From the NCBI GenBank assembly GCA_020073085.1, contig JAIQFV010000007.1, positions 120,375 to 184,374 on the forward strand: a stretch of DNA of 64,000 bases, read 5' to 3'. The DNA comes from Terriglobia bacterium (lineage in GTDB: Bacteria; Acidobacteriota; Terriglobia; JAIQFV01). Numbering within the stretch: the stretch's first letter is position 1; each line of letters begins with the position of its first letter. The notes under the pieces are model-generated. The model was not told where the DNA came from. It worked only from the letters and a program-made list of their open reading frames with translations, and made no database searches. Shown here in pieces: positions 32,793 through 63,493 of the stretch. Both the position numbers and the translations under genes were made by a program.

Positions 32793-33455
32793 ATGTCGAT
32801 GTTAGGTGAGAAGGAACGGGGAATCGTAAGCGAGCAATTTCAAAAGCTCGAGAGCCCTGTGAAGTTGATTCATTTTACCCAGGGCTTGATGTGTGATACA
32901 TGCCCCGAGACCCAGCGGCTCCTTGAAGAAGTAGCATCGCTGTCCGACAAAATCACCCTTGAAGTGCATAACTATGCGATTGAAGGAGATTTGGCGGCGC
33001 AGTATCGGGTGGCCCGTGTCCCTGCGACCGTAGTTCAGACGGAGAAGGATTTTGGAATCCGGCTCTACGGGATGCCTTCGGGTTACGAATTCGTCTCGCT
33101 ACTGAATGCTATCCTGGCCGTATCTCGCTCCACAACCGATTTGACAGAGGAATCCAGGATCCAGCTCCAGTCCATTACCGCTCCCACGCACATTCAGGTG
33201 TTTGTTACGCCCACTTGACCGTACTGCCCCGCGGCCGTGAAGCTCGCGCATGAAATGGCTATCGAGAACGATTTCATCACCTCAGACATGGTGGAAGTGA
33301 ACGAATATCCGGATCTGGTCCGCAGGTATCAGGTTCGAGGAGTTCCAAAAACCGTGGTGAACGATACCGTTGAGTTTGTTGGCGCTCTTCCGGAAGCGGA
33401 GTTTGTCGCGCAGGTCTTGAAGGGCATATCCCCCACCAGCTTGGAAATCAGGTAG
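32793..33455 (+). CDS. Two-domain glutaredoxin-like protein disulfide oxidoreductase, predicted selenoprotein (Sec at TGA 33216..33218)
   Basis: ORFs 32793..33218 and 33237..33455 are in the same frame. Readthrough gives VFVTPT-U-PYCPRAVKLAHEMAIEN, so TGA sits where PDO-type proteins carry the first Cys of CPYC. The first domain keeps CDTC. A hairpin follows the TGA. Confidence 0.8.
33230..33248 (+). promoter_or_regulatory. Candidate SECIS hairpin
   Basis: CGCGG (33230..33234) pairs with UCGCG (33244..33248), including one G-U pair. The loop is CCGUGAAGC. The stem starts 11 nt after the UGA. Confidence 0.5.
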
Positions 33456-33647
33456 AGGAAAGAGAGGGGAGCCCAGAGAATCAGGATCATCCCCCCCTGC
33501 TGCTGCCTTCATTTCCCAGTTCATGGAATGAGGCAGTCGACGATTCCCTCTCTGTCTTCCTGCTTCCTGTGCTGAATGTCCTTCCAGTCCCGCGCCCGGG
33601 AGGGCACAGGATAGCCCCCGGAAAAAAGGACATTTTCCAACCCCGTC

Positions 33648-35558
33648 TTATTCACTGGCCGGCGGTTGATCCTCTGAAAGGTGAGATTCATAGCCGGTCA
33701 TCAGCGGGAGGCCGGGAAGCGTCTCCAAAGGCACAACATCCGGCTTGACCTCGTAGTAGCCATCAGGGAGATCGCCATTGTCGGGACGAAAATACCGCCA
33801 AAGGCTGGGACGCACGGATGCGATCAGCTCTTTTCTCGTTTTGGTTTTGAGCGGCCTTCCGATGTAGATTTTGCCCATCCGCTCCAGGATCTTTTCCGGG
33901 ATGGCGCCGGCAAACATGAACAAAGGATATTTGAAATTCGGCCCGTTCAACCTCCTCAATTTGACTAGCCACATGATCAGCGCACCGAGGCGCCATGCCG
34001 TAGGGGCCCACCAACTGTAATTGCCCGGCCGTACGTTCATCTTCCAGCACTTCATCATGAGCTGCCATTGCAGGGGTGAAAGCTGACGTGTTTCAGTCAC
34101 GCCTTGCTTATCTGCCATCCGGGTGTCATGCAACGGGGTAAAGATCGAGGGGATGAGAAAGGCAAAGACGTGGCGTCGCTCCATCTCGTAAACCAGGTCG
34201 AGCGTTGCTTTGACATCATCGTCCGTTTCCCCCGGGTTACCCACGATTAAGGTCATGGCCGGAAACCAGTTGTTCTCGTTCAAGATCCGAAGTCCTTCCA
34301 GGATAATGCTCGGCCAGTCCTCAATGGCAAAAGGGACGGCCTTGCTCGGCATGATCTGTTTTGCCATGCGAACTGACCCTGTCTCCAGCCCAATCAAGGG
34401 GATCAATGCCTTCTTCTGAGGATGGCTGCTGAGGTACGGGAAATGGATGGGGCTCTTGGGGAGCAGGAGATTCGACAGTTCATTGATCAGGATCGGATCG
34501 ACAACCGCCGGGGCAATGGTGCTATGACTCAGCAGATGATACTCGACCCCAGGCGTGTTGACGACATCGCGATAGAGGCTGACCAGGGCTTCCCGATTCG
34601 GGAAGTAAAACGGGGTATCCGTGTGAACCTGCCCCCAGATGAACATATCCTCGGTGGCGAGCGAAATCTGCTTGTTCCCGTTGCGGACATTTGCCCGGAC
34701 TGCTTTCAGGAGATTCGCCTTGGGAACATCTATCTGCGGATTGAGATCGGGGACACAGAACTGGCATCTTCGGCCGCAGCCGGTGGTCATCTCGACCACA
34801 CCAAAAGTCGTCCGTTTGTCCGGAGCGAGAATTTCATCGCGTCCTCTCGGATGTGCGACCTCGATTTGTCGGGGGAGGGGATCTCCGCGCAAAGCCTTTC
34901 GGAACAACTCCATTGTGTCCATCGATTCGCTGCGCCCTTCGATAACGCAGTCCACCCCCAGGTCCTCGTAGGAATCGGTCTTTACGATTTGCCAACCGCC
35001 CGATCCGCCCACAATGACCTTGAAGTGGCCTCGATAGGGGTTTCCCTTGATCTTCGCAAAAAGGGCTCGCGCATAGTGGGAGTTGATGGGCATCTTTGAG
35101 GATCCGAACATGGAGGTATAAACCCCGGCTGCAAAGGTCACTCCCAGGGGATTGTGCGTGGAGACCGCGACGACACGGGTGTTCGGGCCGATGAATTTTT
35201 CCAGATCGTCAGGGTAGCATGCGACCACATCCTCCGGGCGGTAGCTGCGGAGCAATGCGGCCTCCACCAGCCTTACGCCTGCAGGCATAGTTCGGGCGGA
35301 TCCATCTTCGTTGTGCTCCACCTCGCGCCAATGGGGATATTTGTCGTTGAGGAACCGCTCCATCCAGATGGGTAAGGATGCCATCATCATCTGAATAAAG
35401 TAGCCGGCATGGTCAATGGTCTCAGACAGGGGTGCTGTCAGGACAATCAGCTTCCCTCCATCAACCGGGGCCGATGATTGAAGGGCCTGCGGCGATTTGT
35501 CCCCGACCGTTTCGCGTGGCACGCCACTTCCGTTGCTCTTCCCAGTCTTTCGATCCAT
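33648..35558 (-). CDS. B12-binding-domain radical SAM protein
   Basis: An N-terminal flavodoxin-like/B12-binding-type region is followed by CGRRCQFC (CX3CX2C). There is a long C-terminal extension. A strong RBS (GAAGGAG) lies 7 nt upstream of the ATG. Confidence 0.85.
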   Translation of the reverse strand: MDRKTGKSNGSGVPRETVGDKSPQALQSSAPVDGGKLIVLTAPLSETIDHAGYFIQMMMASLPIWMERFLNDKYPHWREVEHNEDGSARTMPAGVRLVEAALLRSYRPEDVVACYPDDLEKFIGPNTRVVAVSTHNPLGVTFAAGVYTSMFGSSKMPINSHYARALFAKIKGNPYRGHFKVIVGGSGGWQIVKTDSYEDLGVDCVIEGRSESMDTMELFRKALRGDPLPRQIEVAHPRGRDEILAPDKRTTFGVVEMTTGCGRRCQFCVPDLNPQIDVPKANLLKAVRANVRNGNKQISLATEDMFIWGQVHTDTPFYFPNREALVSLYRDVVNTPGVEYHLLSHSTIAPAVVDPILINELSNLLLPKSPIHFPYLSSHPQKKALIPLIGLETGSVRMAKQIMPSKAVPFAIEDWPSIILEGLRILNENNWFPAMTLIVGNPGETDDDVKATLDLVYEMERRHVFAFLIPSIFTPLHDTRMADKQGVTETRQLSPLQWQLMMKCWKMNVRPGNYSWWAPTAWRLGALIMWLVKLRRLNGPNFKYPLFMFAGAIPEKILERMGKIYIGRPLKTKTRKELIASVRPSLWRYFRPDNGDLPDGYYEVKPDVVPLETLPGLPLMTGYESHLSEDQPPASE

Positions 35559-36001
35559 TTCATCTCCTTCAAAGGCATGGATTTACAAGAGAACCCGGTT
35601 CACCGGTCGTAGGATAATAAGTAACCAGGAAACGGTAGAACTGGACTTCCCTCGAAGTTGCCAGAGGGAACGGCGTAATTCCCATTAAGAATTGGGGAAT
35701 CTTACCTTCTTTTCCACACGAAAGCACGGAAAATCATCACAAGGAGGGGCCAGTGCAAAGTATGTATTCCTGGGGACGAATTCCACACGGTCATGCGTCG
35801 CGTTTGATTTGAAGGATTCCTTCACGGCAACGTGGCCTTGACTCCCACTTGGATCTTTTGCTACCTTGGGCAACGGACAAGGGCATCCGGAGGCCCCCCC
35901 CAATACATTATTCTCGAGCGCGACACGCAGGATCTAAACGTGAAGAAATGCAAGCTCCCTTCAGCTTTGCTGGGTATTTACTATGATTTCAGGGTGGCCC
36001 A

Positions 36002-36688
36002 ATGAACCCATCTCATCGAAGGGTCTTCAGCCCTTATGCAGTCCCCTCTCCACAAACTCCTGGTCCACAGAGGTTTACTCAAAAGGAATGGGACATAATC
36101 CAAAGGTGTCGCACCCCTCGTCAGGTTCAGGGGTTCCTGAGGAATCTCCCTTACAATTGGGAGAAGAAAACCCTGCGCACCTTTCGACAGGTGGCTCGCC
36201 ATGGATCGGCCCATTGTCTGGAAGCCGCCTTGGCAGCGGCCACGATCATGGAACAGCACGGTTATCCTCCCTTGCTGCTCGATCTGGAGTCCAAGGACAA
36301 TCTGGATCACGTCTTGTTTTTGTACCACCAAAAGGGACGATGGGGGACGGTTGCCAAGTCTCGGGATGCCGGACTGCACGGACGCCGGCCGGTGTTCCGC
36401 TCGATCCGGGATTTGGTCATGAGTTACGTCGAACCTTATGTCGATTTCACGGGGCGTATCACGGGGTTCGGAGTGACGGATTTGAATGAATTGGTCCCCC
36501 GTTGCAATTGGCGCCTTTCAAGAAAGAACGTTTGGGTGGTGGAACGCGCGCTCATCGACATGCCCCATCAAAAGATCAAAACCTCCACGGCACGTTTCAG
36601 GCGCGCGTTGAAGCGCTATCTCAATTTCAAGAAGCGATTTCCTCACCGCCAAGCAACCTATTATAGGAACCGGCATCACTGGTTGTGA
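36002..36688 (+). CDS. Hypothetical protein with a possible papain-like Cys/His pattern
   Basis: 228-aa ORF. GSAHCLEAALAAATIM and LDHVLFLY are reminiscent of C39/transglutaminase-like thiol enzymes. I did not recognise a firm family. Confidence 0.45.
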   Translation: MNPSHRRVFSPYAVPSPQTPGPQRFTQKEWDIIQRCRTPRQVQGFLRNLPYNWEKKTLRTFRQVARHGSAHCLEAALAAATIMEQHGYPPLLLDLESKDNLDHVLFLYHQKGRWGTVAKSRDAGLHGRRPVFRSIRDLVMSYVEPYVDFTGRITGFGVTDLNELVPRCNWRLSRKNVWVVERALIDMPHQKIKTSTARFRRALKRYLNFKKRFPHRQATYYRNRHHWL

Positions 36689-36845
36689 GACGGGTGAACT
36701 GTCGTCCCGGAACAATTCGAGCCCCTCGCCAGAGCCCGGATCAGGAAAACCTCATGAGGAGCACGCTGTGATGGAGGATACCTTGACAGGTGGCCCAGTT
36801 CATGTAAAATATCACCCTATTTTTGAGGGGGGGCGTGCATACTGA

Positions 36846-37202
36846 ATGGAAAAGAAGCGTCTCGAGTATTACAAGAAGAAACTTGAAACCAAGTATTCAG
36901 AGCTGACCCAAACCGTCTCGAAAGTGGAGCATTACGGACGAGAAGTGGATGAAGAACCGAGCCAGGATATTGCTGACAAGGCATCCAATTCGTACGAGAA
37001 GGAATTTCTATTTAGTTTGACAAACAATGATCGTTACGTCCTCCAGCTTGTCCAGGAGGCGCTCGGGCGGATCCGCGAAGGATCCTACGGCCACTGCATT
37101 GTTTGTGAAGAGGAAGTGCAACAGAAACGCCTTGAGGCGGTCCCGTGGGCGCGTCACTGCATTGAATGTCAGGAAAAGCAGGAACAGGGACTCTTGAATT
37201 AA
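36846..37202 (+). CDS. dksA: DksA/TraR family C4-type zinc finger protein
   Basis: A coiled-coil N-terminus and the zinc finger CIVCEEEV...ARHCIECQ. Confidence 0.8.
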   Translation: MEKKRLEYYKKKLETKYSELTQTVSKVEHYGREVDEEPSQDIADKASNSYEKEFLFSLTNNDRYVLQLVQEALGRIREGSYGHCIVCEEEVQQKRLEAVPWARHCIECQEKQEQGLLN

Positions 37203-38092
37203 CCTCACTCAGCCTCAAGGTTGCACGTGGAGGTTGCCGGTTCACGGCAAAGGTAATTTGGAGGGTCGTCTTCGAATCCAGTCGTGTTTGGACTCAAGAT
37301 TCATTGCAAACCCCGCTTTGGAGGGCCACACTCTCCCCCATCCTCGATTCCCTCTTTTCGGTTCTACTCCCCGCACACTGCGACCTTTGTCACGAATTGA
37401 TCACCCGGGCCTTTGACTCTACGGTCTGCGCTCAGTGCTGGTCGACCCTGCGACCGCTGAATGATAATGTCTGCTCCCTTTGTGGCGATCCCATCATCAC
37501 ATCGAATGTGCCTCCCGGGTGGCGCTGTGGCCGATGCCGCCGCGGCCTCTACGAGTTTGATTTTTGTCGCTCCTACGCGCTGTACGAGAACAGGGTGCGG
37601 GAAGTGTTGCATCGGTTTAAGTACGGCAGGCGGGCGAGATTGGGGGCGCGACTGGCGCAGTTGCTTTCACAAATCTGGGCTCACTATCCCCTCCTTCAAG
37701 AGGCTGAAGTGATCGTCCCAATGCCCCTTCACCGGCGACGGGAGAAAGAGCGGGGTTTCAATCAATCCGGAATTCTGGCAAAATGTCTGTCTGGAATGGT
37801 CGGAAGGCCGCTGGCAGCCAAGGCGGTAGGCCGGGTTCGAAATACCCCCTCGCAGACGGGCTTAAGCCATCGACAGCGCCGCCTGAATGTGGCGCAATGC
37901 TTTGAGGTCAGACAACCCGCAGCCATCCAGGGAAAGGCATGCCTGGTCGTGGACGACGTCTTTACGACCGGGGCCACATTGAACTCACTGGCCCGGGTCT
38001 TGAAGGAAGAGGGGGCCGCCAAGGTTTTCGCCCTGACGCTGGCCCGAGTTTCACCGCTCGCGGCGATCGGGACGGCAGAGAGGGCGGCATGA
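37166..38092 (+). CDS. ComF family protein (phosphoribosyltransferase domain); start uncertain
   Basis: N-terminal Cys pairs (CDLC, CAQC, CSLC, CGRC) and the PRPP-binding motif [13 protein letters not shown]. The longest ORF overlaps dksA by 37 nt. Confidence 0.8.
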
Positions 38093-38180
38093 CCAGCGAT
38101 TTATGATGAACGCAAAACCCCATGACCGGGTCCATGGAGAAATTCACGCACCCCGGACCGAACCAACCCGTTCGACCTTT

Positions 38181-38690
38181 ATGCACACCCCTGTTCTGGT
38201 CCTGAATGCCACCTATGAACCCATCAATATCTGCGCCGCCCGGCGAGCGCTGGTGCTCGTCTTAAAAGGCGTGGCTCGAGCCGAGGAGGAACACCCTCGA
38301 TTCATCAAATCTCCAACCTTCAGTATCCGGGTTCCTTCTGTCATCCGGTTGTTGGAGTTTCGTCACATCCCCCGTCAGTCGCGCGCCTTGTCAAGAAAGA
38401 ACATCCTGCTGCGCGACCGGAACACCTGCCAATACTGTGGAGGCGTGTTTCCACCCAACGAACTGACTCTCGACCATGTGATCCCCCGATCGCGAGGCGG
38501 TGCGTCCACCTGGGAGAACCTGGTCGCCTGCTGCAAGGGATGCAATCATAAGAAAGGCAACTCAACCCCCGCGGAATCAAGCCTCCATCTGTTTCGTGAA
38601 CCCCGCTCCTTTAATCTCCACACGAGCCGCCAGCTGATGCGAATGATCGGTCCTTCGGATGAGCATTGGAGAAAATACCTGTTCTATTGA
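38181..38690 (+). CDS. HNH endonuclease
   Basis: CQYCGG...[31 protein letters not shown]. The start is set at ATG 38181. Confidence 0.85.
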
Positions 38691-38697
38691 CCGGCGA

Positions 38698-38725
38698 GGC
38701 CTGTGAGGTTCAATTCTCACCGGCC
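38698..38725. terminator. Hairpin between convergent genes (possible bidirectional terminator)
   Basis: GGCCTGTGAG (38698..38707) pairs with CTCACCGGCC (38716..38725) with one mismatch. The loop is GTTCAATT. There is no clear U-run. Confidence 0.35.
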
Positions 38726-38753
38726 GGCTAGCATTGGGGTCCTAAAGGTTCGG

Positions 38754-39782
38754 TCACTTGGCGGGTGAAGGCGCGGAGGTCTTTGACGCATTCTCAAGAA
38801 TACGTTTCGCGAAGTAATTTGTGATTTTCGCTTCGTCCCGAGTATCCTCGATGAAGGCATCCGTGAGCAGGCGATCCTTCTGCTCGAAGAGGTCATTTCG
38901 GACAGAGGTGGTCACCCGGGGATCCGACAAATCGTGTTGTCCTCCCTTTTCGATTTCGAACAGCTTGATGATCAGGTAACCCTGTTTTGTCCTGATCAAA
39001 TCGGAGGTTTCGCCCACCTTCAACGCCGTCATTGCGGCCTTGAATGCGGGATCGGTCTTCGCCAGGTCGGCATCGGACACAAAGGTAATCTGTCCGCCCG
39101 GGGAATTGGGCGTGGAGTCATCGGACCGCTGCTGAGCCACGGTGGTAAATTCCTCACCTGAACGGATGCGGCTGAGCACCGCTTGGGAAAGCTCTTTCAG
39201 CTTTCCTTCATCAGGCGCGTTCGCGATGAGGATGTGGGCAAAACGGTATCCCGGGGGAAAATTGAAGTTCGCTTTGTTCTTCTGATAGTAATCCGCGATT
39301 TGAGCATCGGTGATCGAAATCTTGGCGGTGATTTCCTTGTTCTTCAACTTATCGATGGTGATTTTCTTCTGCAAATCGTGCTTCAGCTCATCCATCGTGT
39401 AGTCCTGATCCTTCAGCGACTTTTGAAACTCCTCCTCGGTACTCCTGCTTTTGAGCTCGGTCAGGCGGTTTTCAACCTCGGTATCCGTGGCGTTCAACCC
39501 CAACTTGGCGGCCCGCTCCAGGAGGATCTGGTCATTGACCAGACTTGTCAGGATATTCAGTTTGAGACTGTTGATCTGATCTTCAGAGTATTGGACCGTC
39601 TGGCCTTTGATGCTCCGTTGATACACGCGATCGACTTCGTTCTCGCTGATTTCCTTTCCATTAACCGTGGCCAGCACTCCCCGGCCCGGACTGCTCTTTC
39701 GATTGCACGCAGGAATTAATATCATTAGGACAGCGACCAAGGCCGCCAAAATGAATTGCCACTTTAATCGATTCACAGGCAT
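38754..39782 (-). CDS. SurA-like peptidyl-prolyl isomerase / periplasmic chaperone (lipoprotein-type signal)
   Basis: Signal sequence with ...LMILIPAC, a SurA_N-like helical region, then a PpiC-type rotamase segment. The start is uncertain (39809, 39782 or 39776). Confidence 0.75.
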   Translation of the reverse strand: MPVNRLKWQFILAALVAVLMILIPACNRKSSPGRGVLATVNGKEISENEVDRVYQRSIKGQTVQYSEDQINSLKLNILTSLVNDQILLERAAKLGLNATDTEVENRLTELKSRSTEEEFQKSLKDQDYTMDELKHDLQKKITIDKLKNKEITAKISITDAQIADYYQKNKANFNFPPGYRFAHILIANAPDEGKLKELSQAVLSRIRSGEEFTTVAQQRSDDSTPNSPGGQITFVSDADLAKTDPAFKAAMTALKVGETSDLIRTKQGYLIIKLFEIEKGGQHDLSDPRVTTSVRNDLFEQKDRLLTDAFIEDTRDEAKITNYFAKRILENASKTSAPSPAK

Positions 39783-40118
39783 CTCCTTCGGAATTGAATC
39801 CCACACCACGATGGCGGCGTCTCATAACGCAAACAAACCTGCCGATGTTACCATGCGACATTCCATCCATAAAACAACTTTTTAGTCCGCAGTGGCTGGC
39901 CGGTCCGGTGATTGCCCGCTCCTGACGCAACGGTTAGCGGCAAGCACAAGCGAGTCTCCTGGGGGGAATCCAGATTCGAAGCGCCGCCGTGTCCGGGGAA
40001 TAACCCTCTGTCTCTTCAGAGCCAGCGGAACCCTTTCACGAAGCAGGGAACGAGAATTCTGGCCCTGTTTCGCAGGGGGCTTTTGCCCCTGTCTCCACTG
40101 AGGAATGCAAATTTCCGG

Positions 40119-40147
40119 TTGTCAAGGGACCTGCTTCTCGATATAAT
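40119..40147 (+). promoter_or_regulatory. Candidate sigma-70 promoter (TTGTCA-N17-TATAAT) for rpmB
   Basis: TTGTCA lies at 40119..40124 and TATAAT at 40142..40147. A GGAGG RBS precedes the ATG at 40183. Confidence 0.55.
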
Positions 40148-40182
40148 GGCGGGCTTTTGATGGTTCCTCGGAGGTTAGCTGT

Positions 40183-40374
40183 ATGGCCAGAGTTTGTGAT
40201 ATCTGCGGCAAGAAACCCGTGTCCGGGCATCGGGTCAGTCATGCCCACAATCTGACGAATCGACGGTGGTTGCCAAATCTGCACCGGGTCCACGCTGTTG
40301 TTAACGGGGCCCGTACCACGGTCCGGGCCTGCACCCGATGTATCCGCTCCAACCGTGTAGTCAAAGCAGCCTGA
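40183..40374 (+). CDS. rpmB: 50S ribosomal protein L28
   Basis: [33 protein letters not shown] is the canonical L28 N-terminus. Confidence 0.95.
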
Positions 40375-40553
40375 TTACATCCCGATTCTCCTGCCTCGTT
40401 TGAATCGGCTGCGACCCCGTCATTCTGAGAGTCAGCCTTGTCCCCCCTCAGTCAAGCAGGCGGGGATTCAATACCCGTTCAAGTCTTCATCCCACCCGGA
40501 CGAGCGCCTGTCACAGCTTCCCACCACACTGAAATCCAGGGTGCACCTCCCTG

Positions 40554-40931
40554 TCAGGCCAACGCAATGACATCAATCTCCACGCGCGCATCCTTGGGAA
40601 GGCGGGCCACTCCAACGGTTGAGCGAGCCGGTCGATTCTCCCTGAAAAACTTCCCGTAGACTTCATTCATCTTGGGAAACTCACCGATATCTGCCAGGAA
40701 AACGGTTGTCTTGATGACCTTATCCAGGCCGCTTCCCGCCGCTGCGAGGACCCCTTCCAGGTTTCGCAACACCCGTTCGGTCTGGGTGGAGATGTCCCCC
40801 TCGATCATCTGCTGCGTTTGGGGATCCAATGGAATTTGTCCGGAGGCGAAAACCATCCCGTTCACTTTTATGGCCTGGGAATAGGGGCCGATCGCCTGAG
40901 GAGCGTTCTTTGTTTGGATAACTTCTTTCAT
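40554..40931 (-). CDS. ridA: RidA family protein (YjgF/UK114 enamine/imine deaminase)
   Basis: GPYSQAIKVNGMVFASGQIPLDP...ARSTVGVARLPKDARVEIDVIA. Confidence 0.9.
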   Translation of the reverse strand: MKEVIQTKNAPQAIGPYSQAIKVNGMVFASGQIPLDPQTQQMIEGDISTQTERVLRNLEGVLAAAGSGLDKVIKTTVFLADIGEFPKMNEVYGKFFRENRPARSTVGVARLPKDARVEIDVIALA

Positions 40932-40993
40932 GCCCTGTCACTCCTTTGAAGGAAAATAGAATCCCTGAGAGGAAACCGCTTCAGCGTGCGGGA

Positions 40994-43186: not shown

Positions 43187-43192
43187 CTGTGA

Positions 43193-43198
43193 ATTATA
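43193..43198 (-). promoter_or_regulatory. Candidate -10 hexamer TATAAT located 6 nt upstream of the rel ATG
   Basis: The minus strand reads cgTATAATtcacagATG. No Shine-Dalgarno sequence is visible. Confidence 0.35.
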
Positions 43199-43455
43199 CG
43201 CAGTTTATCGAAGAAATTCCAAAATGCAAATACTTGGACCAAAATCCAATCGTCAAAATCCAAATTTCAAACAAAACCCTAATTCCAAAAGCCAAAGACA
43301 CAGAGAAGAGCGGATAAACGCACTAGTTGGACTGCAACAACGTTTGGTTTCCTTCAATCACACTTCGATGGCGCGAAGGCAAGTGCTCCATAACCCGGAG
43401 GATCTGGTTCTCGGCCTCCGTCTGAAATCATGTTCCTGCTTGGAAATTGTCCGAT

Positions 43456-43496
43456 AAAAAAAGCCCCGGTCCACTGCTCATGCTGTGGACCAGGGC
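43456..43496 (-). terminator. Rho-independent terminator downstream of the TPR lipoprotein gene
   Basis: A 12-bp stem (43463..43474 pairs with 43485..43496, one G-U pair) is followed on the minus strand by a 7-U run (43456..43462). Confidence 0.8.
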
Positions 43497-54252: not shown

Positions 54253-54395
54253 CGAGTTAGTCGTCGTGAATCATTCCGTTTGTTGCACTTCTGACAATCT
54301 GTTTTTGACTCACGCTGAGTCGCGAAGAAGCCAGAGGGTCAGCTCCGGCTCATCCTGGCCCCTGACACCCGACACCTGGCACCGGATCTCCTCGC

Positions 54396-54423
54396 TGCCC
54401 ACTGCCCACCGCCCACTGCCCAC
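54396..54423 (-). repeat. Four tandem heptamers GTGGGCR (G3-N4 x4, G-quadruplex-type motif on the mRNA-sense strand)
   Basis: The minus strand reads GTGGGCAGTGGGCGGTGGGCAGTGGGCA. It starts 5 nt after the stop of the OppD-like gene, within a 175-nt inter-cistronic gap. Confidence 0.8.
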
Positions 54424-54427
54424 TCTT

Positions 54428-55462: not shown

Positions 55463-55619
55463 TCAATAATTGGAAGTATCCTGTCACCCCTTCGAGCGCA
55501 GGAGGCACGCGTTATCTTATCGCGAATTGGAAGCCCTGCAAGGGAAATCTCGCCAGCAATTGAATCCGGGATAGCTTATCAACCGAGTCTGTGCCGACAA
55601 GCGCAGGAAAGGATCCATC

Positions 55620-55734
55620 ATTAGGAGGCCAGGAATACAGGAAGGTGAAAACCTTAAATCAGAACAGAATTTGAGATCCCGCAGGGAAAGGAACTCTGTC
55701 GGCGTCCATTTTCATGGTTTCCTGGCTTCCTAAT
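55620..55734. repeat. 16-nt inverted repeat (one G-U/mismatch position) enclosing 83 nt
   Basis: ATTAGGAGGCCAGGAA (55620..55635) is complementary to TTCCTGGCTTCCTAAT (55719..55734). It lies in the divergent region between the ABC operon and nuoB. Confidence 0.7.
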
Positions 55735-55860
55735 AAATTCTGGTCTTGGTTCCGGCTTGTCTGGAGAATGGTAATCTCTTCTGCATTTCCCGTAGTTTTT
55801 CTGTCTTCATGAGTGAATCTTTGGTAGAATCACCCTTCACTCAGGAAAGAAAAAGAGGAA

Positions 55861-56412
55861 ATGGCAACAATAACAACGCAAGAAAAGAAAATCGTGCCCG
55901 CAGGAAATCCGTTTGTCGAGCAAAACACGGAGTTTGGGGCCGGGGTGGTCACCACTTCGTTTGACAAGGTGGTCAATTGGGCGCGCAAGTCCTCCATTTG
56001 GCCGATGACTTTCGGCCTGGCCTGTTGTGCAATCGAAATGATGGCGATGGGCGCATCCCGTTATGACATTGCACGATTTGGCGCCGAGGTCTTTCGCGGC
56101 TCACCACGACAATCGGACCTGATGATCGTGGCCGGCCGGGTCTCAAAGAAAATGGCACCGATCGTGCGCCAGCTGTATGATCAAATGCCGGAGCCCAAGT
56201 GGGTCATCTCCATGGGAGTGTGCGCCACAGCGGGCGGCATCTTCAACAATTACGCCATCGTGCAGGGAGTCAACCAGGTAGTGCCAGTGGATGTGTATAT
56301 CCCCGGCTGTCCTCCACGACCTGAACAGCTTATTTATGGCATCATGAAGTTGCAGGAAAAGATCGATCGCCAGCGAGGAAGCTTCAAAGGGGTTCTTCCT
56401 TTTGGGCAGTGA
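55861..56412 (+). CDS. nuoB: NADH-quinone oxidoreductase subunit B (NuoB-like, orphan)
   Basis: [18 protein letters not shown] and IPGCPPRPE are the N2 cluster ligand motifs. No nuoA or nuoC flanks it. Confidence 0.85.
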
Positions 56413-56521
56413 GCCCCTCAGTTGATTGCTCAGGCCGTAGGCGCCGCGGCGACTCCTCGTTTATGGCTGCTCTCCCTTGTCCGATCTTAAGTAGAATCCC
56501 TCCTTCCGATCGATTCCCATC

Positions 56522-56530
56522 TGTTATAAT
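56522..56530 (+). promoter_or_regulatory. Candidate extended -10 promoter (TGtTATAAT) for the Bcp-type selenoprotein gene
   Basis: TGTTATAAT lies at 56522..56530. An AGGAGG RBS lies at about 56576, ahead of the ATG at 56589. Confidence 0.4.
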
Positions 56531-56588
56531 CCGTTCGCGTTCTCACTACCATTTCCAGTTCTGACCAGAAAACCCAGGAGGGATTTCT

Positions 56589-57026
56589 ATGCTGTCACCC
56601 GGAGAGAAGGCACCTGACTTCACTGTGAAGACCCATGAGGGAAAAGAAGTTTCGTTGAGCCAGTTTGGGGGGAGCAAAGTGGTCCTGTGGTTCTACCCCA
56701 AGGCGGACACCCCCGGTTGAACCAACGAAGGCAAAGGATTCCGTGACCGAATCCGAGAGTACGAAGCAAAAAACGTGAAGATCCTTGGCATCAGCTTTGA
56801 TACGGTCGAAGAGAACGCTGCATTTGCCAGGAAGTTTCAGTTTCCGTTCCCCCTCTTGTGTGACACTGACCGCAAGATCGGCCTGGCGTATGGAGCTTGC
56901 GAATCGCCCCAGGATGTATACGCCAAGCGGATTAGTTACGTGATCGGCGAAGATGGGAAAATTCTTCTGGCCTATCCGAAGGTCGATGCCGCGCGCCATC
57001 CCCAGGAAGTGCTGGAGAAGGTCTAG
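56589..57026 (+). CDS. Bcp/PrxQ-type peroxiredoxin, predicted selenoprotein (Sec at TGA 56718..56720)
   Basis: The ATG at 56589 gives MLSPGEKAPDFTVKTHEGKEVSLSQFGGSKVVLWFYPKADTPG-U-TNEGKGFRD, in frame with ORF 56775..57026. The TGA aligns with the peroxidatic Cys of the FYPKxxTPGCT motif. A hairpin follows. Confidence 0.85.
56736..56754 (+). promoter_or_regulatory. Candidate SECIS hairpin
   Basis: GGAUUC (56736..56741) pairs perfectly with GAAUCC (56749..56754). The loop is CGUGACC. The stem starts 15 nt after the UGA. Confidence 0.55.
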
Positions 57027-57871
57027 TAGAATACCTTTTCGAGGAACAAACCGAACGGGGGCGCTGTCCATTCGGCCGGCTTTGGAGAGGGTTTGTAGAA
57101 GAAAGAACTGAATTCATCCCGGGTGCAATTCCCTGCCCCCAATTCCACCATGCTTCCGACCAGGCGCCGGACCATTTTCCACAGAAATCGATCGGCACGG
57201 ATGTGAAAGGTCAATAGCCGGGCGTAACAGGGCCGCGTAATGCGGATTTCCCGCCATTCACACTCTTCCACAATACATTGGAAGGAACGTTCTTCCTCCT
57301 CATCCGGATCACAAAAAGAGCGGAAACTGTGTCTCCCGACGACAAGTCTTGCGGCCTCCTGGAGGAGGGGGAGTTTGATCTCGCGCCTCGGGCACCAGAC
57401 GTGACGCCGCAGGAAGGGCGAGTAAGTTTCAACGATCTGATAGCGGTAGCTGCGGGAGTGCGCATCATGGCGGGCATGAAAATTCAGAGGAACGAAAGCG
57501 GCCTGAGAGACCGTCAGGTCAGCAGAGAGTCCGTTGTTCAGCTCCCGCATGATCTTCTCCGCTGACCACAGGCGCGGATCTTCCGCGTGATCCCCTGCAT
57601 GAAAGGGGGCTTTCAAAAGCGGGATATCGCGGGAGGCGGTCCTGTCCACCGGAGGATCCCCGTGGATGACCGCATTCACAACCTGCGCCTCGGCGTGAAC
57701 CCCGCGGTCGGTACGTCCCGCCGCAATGATCCGCGGCTTTTCTTTCAGGACATCAATCATTGCCGACAGCAATTGGCCCTGGACCGTGCGAACGTCCTTC
57801 TGGATCTGCCAACCATAGAACCGCGTGCCTTCATAGGCGATCGTGAGCTTCAGGTTTCTCATTGCATGCAA
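57023..57871 (-). CDS. truA: tRNA pseudouridine(38-40) synthase
   Basis: AAGRTDRGVHAEAQV catalytic Asp motif. Its stop overlaps the stop of the convergent peroxiredoxin gene. Confidence 0.9.
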   Translation of the reverse strand: MHAMRNLKLTIAYEGTRFYGWQIQKDVRTVQGQLLSAMIDVLKEKPRIIAAGRTDRGVHAEAQVVNAVIHGDPPVDRTASRDIPLLKAPFHAGDHAEDPRLWSAEKIMRELNNGLSADLTVSQAAFVPLNFHARHDAHSRSYRYQIVETYSPFLRRHVWCPRREIKLPLLQEAARLVVGRHSFRSFCDPDEEEERSFQCIVEECEWREIRITRPCYARLLTFHIRADRFLWKMVRRLVGSMVELGAGNCTRDEFSSFFYKPSPKPAEWTAPPFGLFLEKVFY

Positions 57872-57923
57872 ACTTTCCGTTTCACTGGTGCGTCCGCCAT
57901 AGCGGACCCCCCTGCGGTCCCAT

Positions 57924-57940
57924 CTCCGGCTTCCGACTTC
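57924..57940. repeat. Dispersed copy of a 17-mer (CTCCGGCTTCCGACTTC)
   Basis: It is identical to 58322..58338. It lies in the truA-Smr intergenic space. Confidence 0.8.
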
Positions 57941-57967
57941 TGGGCTCTGACCTCGTTTTCCAATGCT

Positions 57968-58384
57968 CTAAATTCGTGATCCCCCGATCAACACCGCCCA
58001 CGTCGCCCCCCAACCTCCTGCTTCCGGCCTGGCATCCTTAAACGACACGACCAGCGGATGCTTGGAGAGCACCGATCGGACAATCTCGCGCTGCACCCCC
58101 ATCCCGCGCCCGTGGATGATTCGTACTGTCTGAAAACCCCTTTCGTGAGCCTCACGGAGATATTCTTCAAGGACGACTTTTGTTTCTTTCGACGAAAAGG
58201 TATGCAGATCGATGGAATCTTCGATAGGAATGTGGACAGGTTCTCCCGAGGACAAGACCTCATCCTCATGATTTCGGAGTTCTGCATTCCCGCCTCCGGC
58301 CTCCGGCTTCTGACTTCCGACCTCCGGCTTCCGACTTCCCCTTTCAGTGGGAGGAGAACTTTGCGGTCCGGGTTTCCTGTCCAA
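57968..58384 (-). CDS. Smr domain protein; start uncertain
   Basis: IDLHTFSSKE...VRIIHGRGMGVQREIVRSVL is the Smr pattern. The longest ORF begins with TTG, and its N-terminus is encoded by a tandem repeat. Confidence 0.7.
   Translation of the reverse strand: MDRKPGPQSSPPTERGSRKPEVGSQKPEAGGGNAELRNHEDEVLSSGEPVHIPIEDSIDLHTFSSKETKVVLEEYLREAHERGFQTVRIIHGRGMGVQREIVRSVLSKHPLVVSFKDARPEAGGWGATWAVLIGGSRI
58293..58340. repeat. Tandem array of about 21 nt units (CTCCGGCTTC[C/T]GACTTCCGAC) related to the 57924 copy
   Basis: The sequence is cctccggc ctccggcttctgacttccgac ctccggcttccgacttcc. It falls in the putative 5' end of the Smr ORF. Confidence 0.75.
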
Positions 58385-58393
58385 AAGCGCTCC

Positions 58394-60025
58394 TTAAATC
58401 ACAATCGCTTCCTGGTACTCACCGAACACGCACCGCATGGCGTCGGAGATCTCCCCCACGGTGGCGTAAGCTTCCACGGCATTGAGGATCGGTGGCAGCA
58501 GGTTCTTCAGGGGATCACGGGCAGAGGTCTCGATTTCCCGCAAAGCGCCTTCCACCTTTCTTGCGTCCCGCTCCGCTCTCAAGGTGGCGAGGCTCTTCTT
58601 CTGCTGCTCTTCCAGGGCGGGGTCGATCCGGAGGAGGGGAATCGGCTTTTCGTGCTCCGCCACAAAGGCATTGATGCCCACCACCGTCTGGTCCTTCGAT
58701 TCGATGGCTCGCTGGTACTGGTATGCCGATTCCTGAATTTCCTTCTGGATAAATCCCGATTCAATGGCCCGAAGCATGCCTCCCATCTTCTCGATCCTCG
58801 CGATATATTCTTCTGCGCGCCGTTCGATCTCATTGGTCATTGACTCGATGAAATAAGACCCGCCCAGGGGATCGACGACATCGGCGACGCCGCTCTCCTG
58901 GGCGATGACCTGCTGGGTGCGCAGGGCCAGCAAAGCGGATTCTTCCGTGGGCAGGGCCAGCGCTTCATCGCGGGAATTGGTATGCAGGGATTGCGTGCCT
59001 CCGAGCACGGCGGCCAGCGCCTGCAACGCCACTCGGACCACGTTCACCTCGGGTTGCTGTGCCGTTAGCGTCGCTCCCGACGTCTGAGTGTGGAATCGCA
59101 GCATCCAGGATTTTGGCTTGCGAGCCCCAAAGCGGTCGCGCATGATCCTCGCCCACATCCGGCGTGCCGCCCTGAACTTCGCCACCTCCTCCAGAAGATT
59201 ATTGTGGGCGTTAAAGAAAAAGGAAAGCCGGGGAGCAAACAGGTCCACGTCCAGACCCGCCTCGACCGCCGCTCCCACATAAGTGATCCCGTTCATCAGG
59301 GTGAAGGCCACCTCCTGAACCGCCGACGAGCCGGCCTCGCGGATATGGTACCCGCTGATGGAAATCGTGTTCCATTCCGGCAAGTGCCTGGCACAATATT
59401 CAAAAATGTTGGCGACCACCCGCAGCGAATGCCGGGGTGGATAGATATAAGTCCCGCGGGCGATATATTCCTTCAGGATATCATTCTGGACCGTGCCGGA
59501 AAGTCTTGCGGGCGCCACGCCTTGTTCCTTTGCCACCCCGATGTAGAGCGCCAGCAGGATTGCCGCCGTGGAATTAATGGTCATGGAGGTCGAGACCTTG
59601 TCGAGCGGGATGCCATCAAACAAGATCTCCATGTCGCGCAGCGAATCGATCGCCACTCCCACCTTCCCCACCTCGCCGGACGCGAGGGGATGATCCGAAT
59701 CGAGCCCGATCTGAGTGGGAAGATCGAAAGCCACCGACAGGCCCATCTGACCCTGCGAAAGGAGAAACTTATACCGCCGGTTGGATTCAGCGGCCGAGCC
59801 GAATCCGGCGTACTGGCGCATGGTCCAGAATCGCCCCCGGTAAAGGTTGGGTTGGATGCCACGGGTGAACGGAAACTCGCCCGGCGGTGCCAGGGATTGC
59901 CCGACATCGAATCCTGACACATCGTCCTCGGAATAGAACCGTTTCAGCTCGATGTGGGAAGTGGTCTCAAATTTGGGTTTGCGTTCAGTCATTGCTGGTC
60001 CCAGGTCAAAATGAGAAGACGTCAA
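58394..60025 (-). CDS. Methylmalonyl-CoA mutase family protein, catalytic (TIM-barrel) subunit without a B12-binding domain
   Basis: [53 protein letters not shown] and colinear MCM motifs. 543 aa. Confidence 0.9.
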
Positions 60026-60085
60026 ATCCTTACTCTTCCAAAGTGCCCCCCGGAGCGTCCGGAATGTCCAGCGGCGAAGGGCGGA

Positions 60086-60343
60086 CTACTGTTTCTTCCT
60101 CACGGCCCGAGCCCGCAAAAGTGAGCTCACCGCAAAGGTCAGTAAGAGGACGGCAAATCCCGCGGAGGTGTAAAACCGAATCCCGGACGAGGGGATTTCC
60201 GGAGTGTAGTCCTTGTATTCTTTCCATGCCGCAATGGCGGCGCTGAACCCCAGCATGAAAAAGAAGAGGCTCATGAACTGATGAAAAATGACCTTGAGCG
60301 AGCGGATGAAGCCGGCAAAGGAGTGCTTGAGTATCCTCCACAT
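60086..60343 (-). CDS. Small membrane protein (hypothetical)
   Basis: Two hydrophobic helices. The start is set at ATG 60343. Confidence 0.4.
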   Translation of the reverse strand: MWRILKHSFAGFIRSLKVIFHQFMSLFFFMLGFSAAIAAWKEYKDYTPEIPSSGIRFYTSAGFAVLLLTFAVSSLLRARAVRKKQ

Positions 60344-60505
60344 AATCCCGCGTATGTTAGGGAGAAAGCGGAGGGAAGTCAAATAGCGACATCGGGAGGG
60401 CAATTGCCGCCACGAGCCTGACCGGCCTGTCCAAATGCTCGCATGGACAATTCAGATCTTGGTGAGATCGACGATGACCGCTACAGGGCTGCCTGCCGAC
60501 AAGGC

Positions 60506-62053
60506 TTATTTTTCAGGTCGCAGCTTTTCCCCAAAAGGCTTATCGAGCCCGCGCTTGGCGGCGGCGAGGGCGCCACGGGTATCCTCGCCTAACTGAACCG
60601 CGGCGGCATACTCCCGGAGAGCGCTCTCACGCTCTCCCTCCAAGTCAAAGAGGCGCCCCAGGTACACGTGCGACCAGGCCTTGGTGGCACTGTCGGCATT
60701 CTTGTCCGCAATCGCCTGCTCAAAATAAGACCTGGCGTCTTCAGGATTTCGCTGCAAGCTGCATGCGACACCCAAACCGTAGAGCGCTTTCGACCGCAAA
60801 TCCGCATCCGAGTCGGCAATCTGTCTAAAGATCTTCTTGGCCAACTCGTACTTTTCTTCGCTGATCAGGTCTTCCGCTTCATCCAGCTTCTTTTCATTCT
60901 CGGTCCGGGGACGCTTGGGAGGGGCCGGCGTGGGGGGGACGGTGACCAGGGGGAGGGAGGCCGCATACTTCTTCTCGGCTTCCATGTCGATGGACTCCAC
61001 CATATCTCCCAACGCCTCCCGGATCCCTTGTTCCCCCTTTTCAAATTCTTGCAACTGATTATAGAAGTGTTTGATCAGAAAGAAACCCGTGGCTGCATTC
61101 CGGGTGAGCTCGTCGTCGGCTTTGGCCGTCGGCAGTTTCCGCATACGGAGCTCCGCCGCACGAATGACGCACTCGATCGCATAAAGCATGAAATCTTTCC
61201 TGAATTGGGGATCGAGGTTGGGATTCTTCGCCGCCACCTCCATCAGGGCCTGCTTGTGATAAAACCGATTGGCGTACTTCAAGCTCAGAGGATCGAGGAC
61301 AAAATGGAGGAACTGATGGCGGATTTCATCCAGATTCGCTCGTGGCGCGGGACTAATGACCAGATAGTAATCCTCACCGTAATTGCGCGCCAAAGCCGCT
61401 GAGCTCGCGCCGAGCATATCAATCGCGATCGAGTAGCGGCGCCCCAGGTAGGAGGAAGACGGCAACCGGAGGTAGGCCTCGGTCTGCTGAATGGTCCGCA
61501 TGATGGGAACCTGTTGCGTCTCGATATAAGATTCCAACGCCGGCTGGGTTTGTCCCCAGAGCTTCTCCAGGTGGGTCGCTTCGTAGAATTCCTTTACCAG
61601 AGGCTGGAATTCCTCGATGGGCAAGACATCGGGAGGCAGCTTATCATGGCTCCACACGAACCCCCATTTCGGAGGCTGGTCCAACACCAGCGCCAGCGAC
61701 ATGTACTTGGACAGCTCCGCACTGCGGTCGGTCCCCTCCTGATGCGACGCATAAAACTGTTTCAGCTTCTCACGCAGCTCGCTCGGAACGTCCTTGTCGA
61801 TCGCGTCTTGTACCCGCTGACGGACCGCGTCGACGCCGGGGGAGGCTGCCGGGCCGAAGCTCAACCCCGCGGCGTGGAGTGCAGAGAGCACCGCAAACAG
61901 ACGGACATCGCCGTCCAGGGTAATCATCGACTGCTGCGCCCAAAGCGGAGAAACCAGCAGCAATCCGAAACAAGCCATCCTCCCGATCAATCGAGTGGTC
62001 CGTTTAAAGGTTCGTGAAGTCATTCGAGCTTTCCATCCCCCCCAGGCATTCAT
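60506..62053 (-). CDS. Secreted hypothetical protein with C-terminal TPR repeats
   Basis: Signal-like CFGLLLVSPLWAQ and C-terminal TPR-like repeats (ALYGLGVACSLQRNPEDARSYFEQAI...). An alternative ATG lies at 62023. Confidence 0.6.
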   Translation of the reverse strand: MNAWGGWKARMTSRTFKRTTRLIGRMACFGLLLVSPLWAQQSMITLDGDVRLFAVLSALHAAGLSFGPAASPGVDAVRQRVQDAIDKDVPSELREKLKQFYASHQEGTDRSAELSKYMSLALVLDQPPKWGFVWSHDKLPPDVLPIEEFQPLVKEFYEATHLEKLWGQTQPALESYIETQQVPIMRTIQQTEAYLRLPSSSYLGRRYSIAIDMLGASSAALARNYGEDYYLVISPAPRANLDEIRHQFLHFVLDPLSLKYANRFYHKQALMEVAAKNPNLDPQFRKDFMLYAIECVIRAAELRMRKLPTAKADDELTRNAATGFFLIKHFYNQLQEFEKGEQGIREALGDMVESIDMEAEKKYAASLPLVTVPPTPAPPKRPRTENEKKLDEAEDLISEEKYELAKKIFRQIADSDADLRSKALYGLGVACSLQRNPEDARSYFEQAIADKNADSATKAWSHVYLGRLFDLEGERESALREYAAAVQLGEDTRGALAAAKRGLDKPFGEKLRPEK

Positions 62054-62182
62054 TCAATATCTTGTGGCGACGATTACAATCTGAACAGCCTCGCAAATAT
62101 TCCATGAAATTGCAAGCCTCGCCTCCACCCCATCTATTCCAGAAGTCGAACGCAAGGTCCGATATGGTAAGATAACCCGGGT

Positions 62183-62758
62183 ATGCCAAACGTCTTAAAA
62201 CCCACGCTGGTCCTACTCGCCCTCACCCTGCTCATCTCATGTGGAGGGAGGCAGGAGAAAAGGCTCGCCCAAAACCTTGACAACCTCCAAATCGCTAACC
62301 TGGCAGCCGAAGACCTGAAAGTCAGTTCGTTCCATCCACACGGAAAAGACGAAGCCATCCTGGTGGCCGATGTTCACACGGCTTTTCTCATGAAGAAGAA
62401 TTCGCGGGGGGAATGGGAGATTCAATCTGTCCGTCTGGGCGATCGCAACTGGGAAGATGCGAAGGATTTTGCCCGGGCACTTCACCAGGTGAGGCTTGAA
62501 CGCGTCAAAAGTGATTTCGAGAAAATCGCGAATGCCCTTGAAAAATATCAGGCCCAAACGAAGGCCTTGCCGGCCGTCGTAGGGATCGGCCCTCTAGTGG
62601 ATCTCTTGTTCCCGACCTACCTGGCGGAAGCCGTGCGGGTCGATCCCTGGTCATCCGAATATAACTACCGCCTCAGCACCCCCACTTCCTACATCCTGAT
62701 TTCCGCCGGGCCGGACCGCAAGTTCGGGACGGGCGACGACATCCGGTTCGAGCGTTGA
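62183..62758 (+). CDS. Lipoprotein with a GspG-C-terminal-like (type II secretion pseudopilin-like) domain
   Basis: Lipobox LTLLISCGG. The C-terminal DPWSSEYNYRL...ISAGPDRKFGTGDDI resembles the T2SS G domain. Confidence 0.55.
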   Translation: MPNVLKPTLVLLALTLLISCGGRQEKRLAQNLDNLQIANLAAEDLKVSSFHPHGKDEAILVADVHTAFLMKKNSRGEWEIQSVRLGDRNWEDAKDFARALHQVRLERVKSDFEKIANALEKYQAQTKALPAVVGIGPLVDLLFPTYLAEAVRVDPWSSEYNYRLSTPTSYILISAGPDRKFGTGDDIRFER

Positions 62759-62841
62759 TGGGACACGGACAAACACGGACGACACAGAGACCTAACAAAT
62801 GGCGTCCATGGATTTGAACCTCGTCCTCGCAAGGACCAGCC

Positions 62842-62889
62842 AAAATGAAAACCGGCTGGCAATGACAAGACTCTTGTCAGGCCAGCCGG
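62842..62889 (-). terminator. Rho-independent terminator of the secreted peroxiredoxin gene
   Basis: A compound hairpin: CCGGCTGGC pairs with GCCAGCCGG, enclosing TGACAAG paired with CTTGTCA (62852..62889). On the minus strand it is followed by UUUUCAUUUU. Confidence 0.8.
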
Positions 62890-62917
62890 AAAAACGTTCT
62901 CAATCCCCGCCAGAATC

Positions 62918-63493
62918 TCAAGGAAACTTCGTCACGGCATCCACGACCTGCTGATCCGGCAACAGCTTCCCTTCCACGTTTTCCCAGAGGATTTTCCCGT
63001 CTGTCCCCACTAGAAAGTAAGTCCTCTTGGCCACCACCGAATGGATGCCCGGGACGTTGACTTCCAGTTCAATGTGATAGTCCTTGATCACCTTGCGTTC
63101 CATATCACTCAGCAAGGGAAAAGGCAGACTGAGGCTTGCCTTGAATTTATCCTGGGAAAAGGGCGTATCGGTGCTGATTCCCCACACTTCGATGTTCTTG
63201 GCCTTTAACTTTTCATAGTTCTCTCTGAACCCAGAGAGCTCGGTCGTTCAACCGCCGGTGAAATCGAAAACATAGAAGGCCAAAAGGACCTTTTTCTTGC
63301 CGCGCATGTCACTCAATTTCATTGGAGCGAGTTTGGGTCCCGAGGGGAGGGTAAAGTCCGGAGCTGTGTCCCCCACCTTGGGGGGTTGCACCCCGGCACC
63401 CGCGGGAGGAGAGGTACTTTGAGCTGTCAAGGAAACTGTGCCCATGAGCAGTAGCGCCACAAAAAGGGACAGAACAAGAAACGTTTTATTCAT
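62918..63493 (-). CDS. Signal-peptide-bearing AhpC/TSA-family peroxiredoxin, predicted selenoprotein (Sec at TGA 63248..63250)
   Basis: The ATG at 63493 gives MNKTFLVLSLFVALLLMGTVSLTAQ...KKKVLLAFYVFDFTGG-U-TTELSGFRENYEKLKAKNIEVWGISTD, in frame with ORF 62918..63187. The TGA aligns with the peroxidatic Cys. A near-ideal hairpin follows. Confidence 0.85.
63221..63238 (-). promoter_or_regulatory. Candidate SECIS hairpin
   Basis: On the minus strand, CUCUCUG-GGUU-CAGAGAG forms a perfect 7-bp stem with a GGUU loop. The stem starts 9 nt after the UGA. Confidence 0.65.

Follow-up and report, generated by a model that had tools for sequence, protein, structure and literature searches.

Two families of thiol-redox selenoproteins are the closest described relatives of the genes reported here. 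Peroxiredoxins (Prx; PF00578, motif TxxU) appear in the family list of a 2026 review as a selenoprotein family shown experimentally, with reference to Sohling et al. 2001 (PMC13188914). The AhpF-N-terminal/protein disulfide oxidoreductase (PDO) type, with the motif UxxC, has also been catalogued (PMC13188914, PMC1794560), and its PDO-type selenocysteine (Sec, U) family is graded as 'predicted with high confidence' (PMC13188914). A survey from 2006 reported 12 Sec-containing Prx and five independent conversions of cysteine (Cys) to Sec, found the AhpF-N-terminal Sec family in Carboxydothermus and Symbiobacterium, and recorded Acidobacteria with selenoproteins in its Table 2 (PMC1794560). A full-text literature search found no paper pairing Acidobacteriota with selenoproteins. 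In this study, a stretch of 64,000 nucleotides from a Terriglobia bacterium (contig JAIQFV010000007.1 of GCA_020073085.1, positions 120,375 to 184,374; hereafter the window) was analysed, in which one PDO gene and two peroxiredoxin genes (Prx2 and Prx3) are each divided by an in-frame TGA into a pair of open reading frames (ORFs). These three pairs are very probably three intact selenoprotein genes in which UGA is recoded as Sec, and all three are new, currently mis-annotated members of catalogued selenoprotein families.

The window is contained in a 221,114-bp metagenome contig (k141_269518 of ENA ERZ27247930), window position 1 corresponding to record position 120,473. The sequence read comprised the window and about 8–9 kb of flank on each side, approximately 82 kb of the 221-kb contig. 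The nearest named relatives of the window were the Terriglobia (Acidobacteriota) metagenome-assembled genomes (MAGs) JAIQFY01 (GCA_020072965.1), JBGQBO01, and JBGPTE01, with the same gene order, and the G+C content was 54–57% along the whole window, with no compositional island. The same split genes were present in the independent assemblies ERZ27247930, ERZ27247941, and ERZ27247996, from three separately assembled samples. Loci, named L with a number, were fetched to a total of 109. Among them, L014–L093 are the 80 loci closest to Prx2 (59–90% identity), obtained by scanning a single genome for each GTDB species. For PDO, the DNA of eight lineages was read (50–100% identity), and for Prx3 nine relatives from JGI metagenomes (37–79% identity), a set biased by the search pattern AFYVFDFT. 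According to the original prediction, all split ORF pairs of the window encode thioredoxin-fold redox enzymes, one PDO and two peroxiredoxins; Pfam and NCBIfam agree, and no plausible split gene was added when 49 window genes were scanned for read-through and upstream extension. None in the flanks was convincing.

The PDO gene (32793–33455, plus strand) has 220 codons and a TAG stop, and encodes two thioredoxin-fold units homologous to the AhpF N-terminal domain, which it also matched in the family search. Both marks of the family TIGR02187 (PDO_seleno_TRX of NCBIfam) were found: a score of 264.7 bits (cut-off 185) over model positions 2–208 of 209, and two thioredoxin-fold units with the sites CDTC and UPYC. 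Residues 2–212 aligned with the PDO of P. furiosus, 1a8l (E=4e-49). The N-terminal redox site CDTC (codons 34–37; 32892–32903, plus strand) aligned with CQYC of that structure, and the in-frame TGA (33216–33218, plus strand), in the context QVFVTPT-U-PYCPAAV, with the first Cys of its CPYC, as the first residue of a C-terminal U-P-Y-C site. The TGA occupies the same codon in all eight lineages, that is, in the window and in seven others at 50–89% identity, and is followed in each by PYC or PHC and then by a conserved C-terminal half. For the N-terminal part, the eight homologues nearest in sequence (61–100% identity) are each exactly 141 amino acids long and end at the same codon; this exact length was found in 28 of the 120 best homologues.

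Prx2 (56589–57026, plus strand; 145 codons, TAG stop, no signal peptide) is a Sec-containing peroxiredoxin of the BCP/PrxQ type, with an E-value of 3.2e-36 against Pfam AhpC-TSA and structure matches to the Bcp of S. solfataricus, 3drn, and to 5enu. The in-frame TGA (56718–56720, plus strand) aligned with the peroxidatic cysteine (Cp) of 5enu; 3drn has Ser at that position. The context is WFYPKADTPG-U-TNEGKGF, with the peroxidatic motif PKADTPGU. The fifth residue after U is Lys, and the resolving Cys usual in BCP (Cp+5) is thus absent, while many Sec-containing relatives have Cys, Ser or Arg there. A count of Cys against Sec homologues in related genomes, proposed with the original prediction, was carried out for Prx2: the peroxidatic codon was TGA in 71 of the 80 loci and TGC or TGT in nine. 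The Sec forms carry the labels Terriglobia, Thermoanaerobaculia, Vicinamibacteria, Blastocatellia, Polarisedimenticolia, "Marinacidobacterales", Binatia, and delta-proteobacterial/Myxococcota-like MAGs, a few of these bin labels looking unreliable. The genome OZ240210.1 contains three TGA-bearing paralogues of Prx2.

Prx3 (62918–63493, minus strand) has 191 codons with an ordinary TGA stop, and encodes a Cys-free peroxiredoxin that contains Sec and a predicted signal peptide, and thus has no resolving Cys at Cp+5. It matched Pfam AhpC-TSA (1.6e-33) and the Prx structure 2ywn (E=6e-24). The in-frame TGA (63248–63250, minus strand) aligned with the Cp of 2ywn and 2cx3, and its context is YVFDFTGG-U-TTELSGF, with the peroxidatic motif FDFTGGU and no Pro at –7. 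TGA was found at this codon in 9/9 of the metagenome relatives, within the limits of a set biased by its search pattern. With the C-terminal part of Prx3, a HMMER search against 1.84 billion representatives returned only one cluster above 50% identity, a fragment of 96 amino acids; by sequence, no close Cys orthologue of Prx3 exists among these representatives. The top 60 representatives included 26 fragments and 32 full-length proteins, an ambiguous count, as truncation at a contig end resembles a split at Sec. A Sec-pathway signal peptide is predicted from the sequence at 63422–63493 (minus strand), MNKTFLVLSLFVALLLMGTVSLTA/QS, and the orthologue L094 has a different, equally hydrophobic N-terminus ending in ASA/QG. 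Prx3 is most likely an exported, envelope 1-Sec peroxiredoxin.

Both peroxiredoxins are BCP/PrxQ-like according to their best PDB and NCBIfam matches. By their scores they are BCP-like proteins outside the equivalogs NF006960 (cut-off 140) and NF053650 (cut-off 260), Prx2 reaching 104.9 and 94.2, respectively, and Prx3 74.6 and 69.4.

In all three genes, the in-frame UGA stands where homologues have a redox-active Cys, as originally proposed and as borne out by the alignments to solved structures, and homologues with a Cys codon were found. The ratio of nonsynonymous to synonymous substitution rates (dN/dS) indicated purifying selection on both halves, with values over the three genes of 0.03–0.35 upstream and 0.02–0.35 downstream of each TGA. 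Comparing the window with its relatives, the values on either side were 0.07–0.35 for PDO and 0.03–0.22 for Prx2; for Prx3 against L094 they were 0.14 and 0.02 on the two sides. The residues immediately after the TGA (TNEGKGFRD, TTELSGFR, and PYCPAAV) are conserved as protein. TGA is also the commonest ordinary stop codon, ending 20 of 41 window genes; Prx3 itself has a TGA stop as well, and a genome-wide reassignment of TGA was rejected for this reason. The conservation of TGA in diverged orthologues, the selection on both halves, the common use of TGA as a stop, and hairpins that are themselves under selection together point to insertion of Sec directed by a selenocysteine insertion sequence (SECIS) and not to decay or error, and the systematic recoding of UGA claimed in the original prediction is upheld on these grounds.

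A putative SECIS hairpin was located by folding and comparison after each TGA, at 11, 15 and 9 nt, in agreement with the 9–15 nt first described. In PDO it is CGCGGC-CGUGAA-GC(U)CGCG (33230–33248, plus strand; 11 nt after the UGA), in Prx2 hairpin B, GGAUUC-CGUGACC-GAAUCC (56736–56754, plus strand; 15 nt), and in Prx3 CUCUCUG-GGUU-CAGAGAG (63221–63238, minus strand; 9 nt). Each is a stem-loop with a G in the first two loop positions and with covariation, the support being weaker for PDO, and all three loops contain a G-U between nt 21 and 27 counted from the UGA. In the SECIS of E. coli fdhF, the loop G23-U24 is contacted by SelB.

The comparative evidence was strongest for Prx2, for which 72 Sec sequences were aligned without gaps (columns 13–37 corresponding to window 56730–56754). 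In the family-wide helix A (columns 13–20 with 24–31, loop GUU), 90% of the cells were paired, versus 35–55% when the partner was slid, and 20 double-sided changes were observed; none of 500 shuffles reached the observed values. The pair 17–27, for example, is G-C in 41 sequences, C-G in 14, and A-U in six. In the window and four Terriglobia relatives, helix A is down to five of eight pairs, and a perfect helix B is present instead, 5 nt further downstream. All six pairs of helix B were found in 18 of the 72 Sec sequences, namely the window, these four relatives, and 13 others, and L028 shows two compensatory changes in it (GGGCUC/GAGCCC). As a structure for the whole Prx2 family, helix B was rejected, with 62.8% of the cells paired, no better than shuffles; it is clade-specific. 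The family thus has two overlapping SECIS hairpins 5 nt apart, most members using A (loop GUU) and the window clade and others B (loop CGYGAYC), with some able to form both. The choice of helix tracks the Cp+5 codon, which is Cys, Ser or Arg with A, and Lys, Asn or Ile with B. Of the nine relatives with a Cys codon, eight have neither helix and the ninth, L068, keeps helix B. This TGC homologue (L068, 3130–3170), with a perfect helix B, hardly differs from the Sec form in L081, and may represent a recent Sec-to-Cys conversion.

In relatives of Prx3 a hairpin was found at the same distance, with a wholly different stem (UGACCGA-GUU-UCGGUC) and the GUU loop kept. In PDO, a 23-nt block over the hairpin, TGCCCCGCGGCCGTGAAGCTCGC, shows no synonymous change among four lineages (dS 0.3–0.9), while the flanking third positions vary freely. 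In L107 (52% identity to PDO), a different, fully paired stem, CAGGC-CGUGC-GCCUG, lies at the corresponding place and keeps the start of the loop. The pentamer CGUGA, noted at the outset as common to two loops, is indeed present in those of PDO (CGUGAA) and Prx2 (CGUGACC). CGUG is kept in seven of the eight PDO lineages, and CGUGA in eight of ten Prx2 sequences that depend on helix B, the other two having CGGGA. CGUGA may be a loop preference, which is inseparable here from the coding constraint.

In the proposed mechanism, the in-frame UGA of each gene would be read as Sec. A SelB-type factor would bind the hairpin 9–15 nt downstream of the UGA and bring Sec-tRNA(Sec), with selA, selB, selC, and selD presumably located elsewhere in the genome. 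Sec would take the place of the attacking Cys: in PDO it would open the C-terminal UPYC site, and in Prx2 and Prx3 it would be the peroxidatic residue. Prx2 would be a cytoplasmic enzyme of the BCP/PrxQ type and Prx3, cysteine-free, would probably be exported. The peroxidase and disulfide-reductase activities of the three proteins are likewise predicted from their sequences.

Several observations weigh against this interpretation. No sel gene or tRNA-Sec was found in the window, in its flanks, or in any fetched locus, and the Sec-decoding trait of the genome, as well as the identity of the inserted residue as Sec, is inferred. The absence of selA, selB, selC, and selD from the window had already been stated and was confirmed, also for the flanks of about 8–9 kb. 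Pfam detected no SelA, SelB or SelD among about 40 large window ORFs, the gene tables of the flanks contained none, no tRNA was found in the window, and no Rfam family reached the gathering threshold there. The 109 fetched loci yielded nothing with ARAGORN, or by tblastn with SelD of E. coli as the query, a result of little weight in what are random flanks. The energies of the single-sequence hairpins were no better than those of shuffles (z = +1.3 for PDO, +0.2 for Prx2, and –0.7 for Prx3), and the case for the hairpins is for that reason built on the comparison of relatives. No Rfam SECIS family was found for the three UGA regions even at E<=10, the only matches being chance fragments of snoRNA and miRNA. 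The PDO hairpin is the weakest of the three: RNAfold selects other structures in some close relatives, and L108 has no clear equivalent. On the other hand, the evidence of UGA decoding, together with the record of selenoproteins in Acidobacteria (PMC1794560), points to a Sec-decoding trait, and it is reasonable to place the machinery elsewhere in the genome.

If the UGA codons are translated, a residue other than Sec could be inserted: Cys, through a second SelB and a tRNA(Cys) that resembles tRNA(Sec), or another residue, through an opal-suppressing allo-tRNA. Delta-proteobacteria and others have such a selC* tRNA(Cys) together with a selB* copy, and Acidobacteria have allo-tRNAs that are possible nonsense suppressors (PMC5389517); moreover, the present sequence data show only read-through of UGA and the need for a hairpin. 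However, Acidobacteria are not among the groups for which selC* was reported (PMC5389517), general suppression clashes with TGA being the commonest stop in the window, and the two families, with these same motifs TxxU and UxxC, are established users of Sec (PMC13188914). The use of UGA and a SECIS for mere Cys would also have no evident benefit over TGC, the codon of nine relatives. Decoding as a residue other than Sec is therefore regarded as very improbable.

Even less credence is given to the explanation that the three genes are pseudogenes, assembly errors or proteins naturally split in two pieces, although the public gene calls give two ORFs per gene and a start codon is available downstream of the TGA in Prx2 and Prx3. 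The same TGA recurs in independent assemblies and in dozens of species, and on either side of it dN/dS is well under 1. The conserved residues right after the TGA precede any possible restart codon, and a split at that point would leave the catalytic residue out of both pieces. The interpretation of three intact genes with UGA decoded as Sec is thus retained.

An all-selenium relay, with Sec-PDO reducing the Sec-peroxiredoxins, had also been suggested. As a complete chain of the three selenoproteins, it would start from a flavoprotein reductase that acts on the Sec-PDO, which in turn would recycle the two peroxiredoxins. Its premise, that PDO-type proteins reduce peroxiredoxins in other organisms, has a real precedent in Sulfolobus: Bcp1, Bcp3, and Bcp4 of Sulfolobus solfataricus are regenerated by a pathway from NADPH through thioredoxin reductase (Tr) to PDO, and the C-terminal CXXC, the site that contains Sec here, is the thiol-transferase site of Sulfolobus PDO (PMC7465337). 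PDO is also homologous to the N-terminal domain of AhpF, the electron donor to AhpC, and a pair in which one selenoprotein reduces another, Sec-Grx and Sec-MsrA, is known (Kim et al. 2011, as cited in PMC13188914). In the distant relative L108 (50% identity), an OsmC-family gene (hydroperoxide reductase-like; 2511–2930) is followed, 70 nt downstream on the same strand, by the Sec-PDO gene (3001–3645). This pair is the only hint of a PDO-peroxidase link seen in the gene neighbourhoods. PDO and Prx2 lie on one contig also in JAIQFY01, but this is mere synteny of close relatives.

The arrangement of the genes argues against the relay. No operon is formed: PDO lies 23 and 30 kb away from the peroxiredoxin genes, Prx3 is on the opposite strand, and around 20 unrelated genes stand between, including relA/spoT, secDF, tgt, tonB-exbBD, and ABC transporter genes. 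For a PDO/Bcp (AhpF/AhpC-like) couple no gene linkage was thus found in the window, and no PDO-like gene or motif was present within 3 kb of Prx2 in the 80 loci of other genomes. Prx3 has a signal peptide and no Cys, and a cytoplasmic PDO could therefore not act on it directly. The neighbourhood contains no thioredoxin reductase gene; the nearest flavoprotein is a putative bacillithiol disulfide reductase of the YpdA family, on the same contig about 7.6 kb past the window end (L103, 19401–20390; TIGR04018, 447 bits, cut-off 339.9), and was rejected as the relay reductase, being a bacillithiol-type enzyme without CxxC. The three-member relay is accordingly unlikely. Coupling of PDO to Prx2, by analogy with Sulfolobus, would be a fair hypothesis of low probability. 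Slightly less probable would be a version in which Sec-PDO is the dedicated reductant of the cytoplasmic Sec-BCP (Prx2), in a flavoprotein-fed selenol-to-selenol couple, with the exported Prx3 served by a separate envelope reductant; if true, much of the peroxide defence in soil Acidobacteriota would run on selenium. The YpdA-family gene, together with a DinB/YfiT-like protein (window 22699–23646) that matched a bacillithiol-transferase model below its cut-off, suggests that the organism may use bacillithiol.

Each of the three genes has its own Shine-Dalgarno sequence. It had been held that each also has its own consensus-like promoter, and this was sustained only for PDO, where a sigma-70 scan found ATGACA-18-TATAAT (32678–32707, plus strand), a consensus match at 11 of 12 positions. 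For Prx2 and Prx3 only –10-like elements were seen: an extended one upstream of Prx2, TGTTATAAT (56522–56530, plus strand), read from the sequence in a region with no –35 match, where the promoter scan found nothing, and TATAGT upstream of Prx3 (63553–63548, minus strand), with no sigma-70 scan match.

Convergent with PDO is the gene of a 636-amino-acid radical-SAM protein (window 33648–35558, minus strand), with only weak matches to MiaB/RimO and to B12-binding radical SAM proteins; it is kept beside PDO in three Terriglobia-type relatives (L007, L010, and L105) and missing in L106. An ORF of 228 amino acids (window 36002–36688, plus strand) has no Pfam or NCBIfam match, and the relative L007 has a 211-amino-acid gene at the equivalent place. 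A solitary gene of the NuoB family (window 55861–56412, plus strand; NF005012, 259.5 bits) precedes Prx2 by 176 nt and has no further nuo genes around it; the four Terriglobia relatives L014–L017 share this arrangement.

Current gene calls divide the three genes, like dozens of relatives in public MAGs, into pairs of short ORFs or label them "hypothetical protein", and the selenoproteome of Acidobacteriota is consequently under-counted. In Acidobacteriota and neighbouring phyla, most of the closest BCP homologues are Sec forms. Should Sec-BCP be usual there, the supply of selenium could, speculatively, affect how well abundant soil bacteria tolerate oxidative stress. The Prx2 family additionally offers a natural comparison of two SECIS designs within one conserved coding segment. 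The current understanding of Sec decoding is unchanged by these findings.

Compared with the NADPH/thioredoxin reductase/PDO/Bcp system of Sulfolobus solfataricus, one genome here likewise encodes peroxiredoxins of the Bcp type and a PDO with that fold. The Sulfolobus system, however, is archaeal and all-cysteine, whereas the genes of the window are unlinked, have no identified reductase partner, and include one Prx predicted to be exported. The tandem Sec-glutaredoxin and Sec-MsrA of Clostridium sp. OhILAs (Kim et al. 2011, as cited in PMC13188914) are a precedent for one selenoprotein reducing another; they belong to other protein families, and the coupling described for them is biochemical, whereas here it is a hypothesis.

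With respect to the SECIS of E. coli fdhF, the hairpins of the window are similarly placed inside the coding sequence soon after the UGA (9–15 nt) and have a G-U in the apical loop (nt 21–27 here, nt 23–24 in fdhF). They differ in their shorter stems (6–7 bp), in having no bulged U on the 5' side (the bulged U of PDO is on the 3' side), in matching no Rfam SECIS model, and in the use of alternative hairpins 5 nt apart by Prx2 clades. From the selenoprotein Prx (PF00578, PxxxTxxU), of which PrxU of Eubacterium acidaminophilum was shown experimentally, Prx2 differs in the absence of the resolving Cys at Cp+5, and Prx3 in being cysteine-free with a signal peptide. Neither is a member of the PrxU equivalog NF040737, with 45.9 and 57.1 bits, respectively, against a cut-off of 270. 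The AhpC-TSA fold, the motif T-x-x-U (TPGU in Prx2 and TGGU in Prx3), and a UGA followed by a hairpin are common to all of them. Finally, in comparison with the known Sec-PDO family TIGR02187, the host is a mesophilic-type Terriglobia MAG and not a thermophile, and the N-terminal site is CDTC; the PDO of the window nonetheless scores above the NCBIfam cut-off of that family, has the two-thioredoxin-fold build of P. furiosus PDO, and carries Sec as the first residue of its C-terminal CXXC (UPYC).

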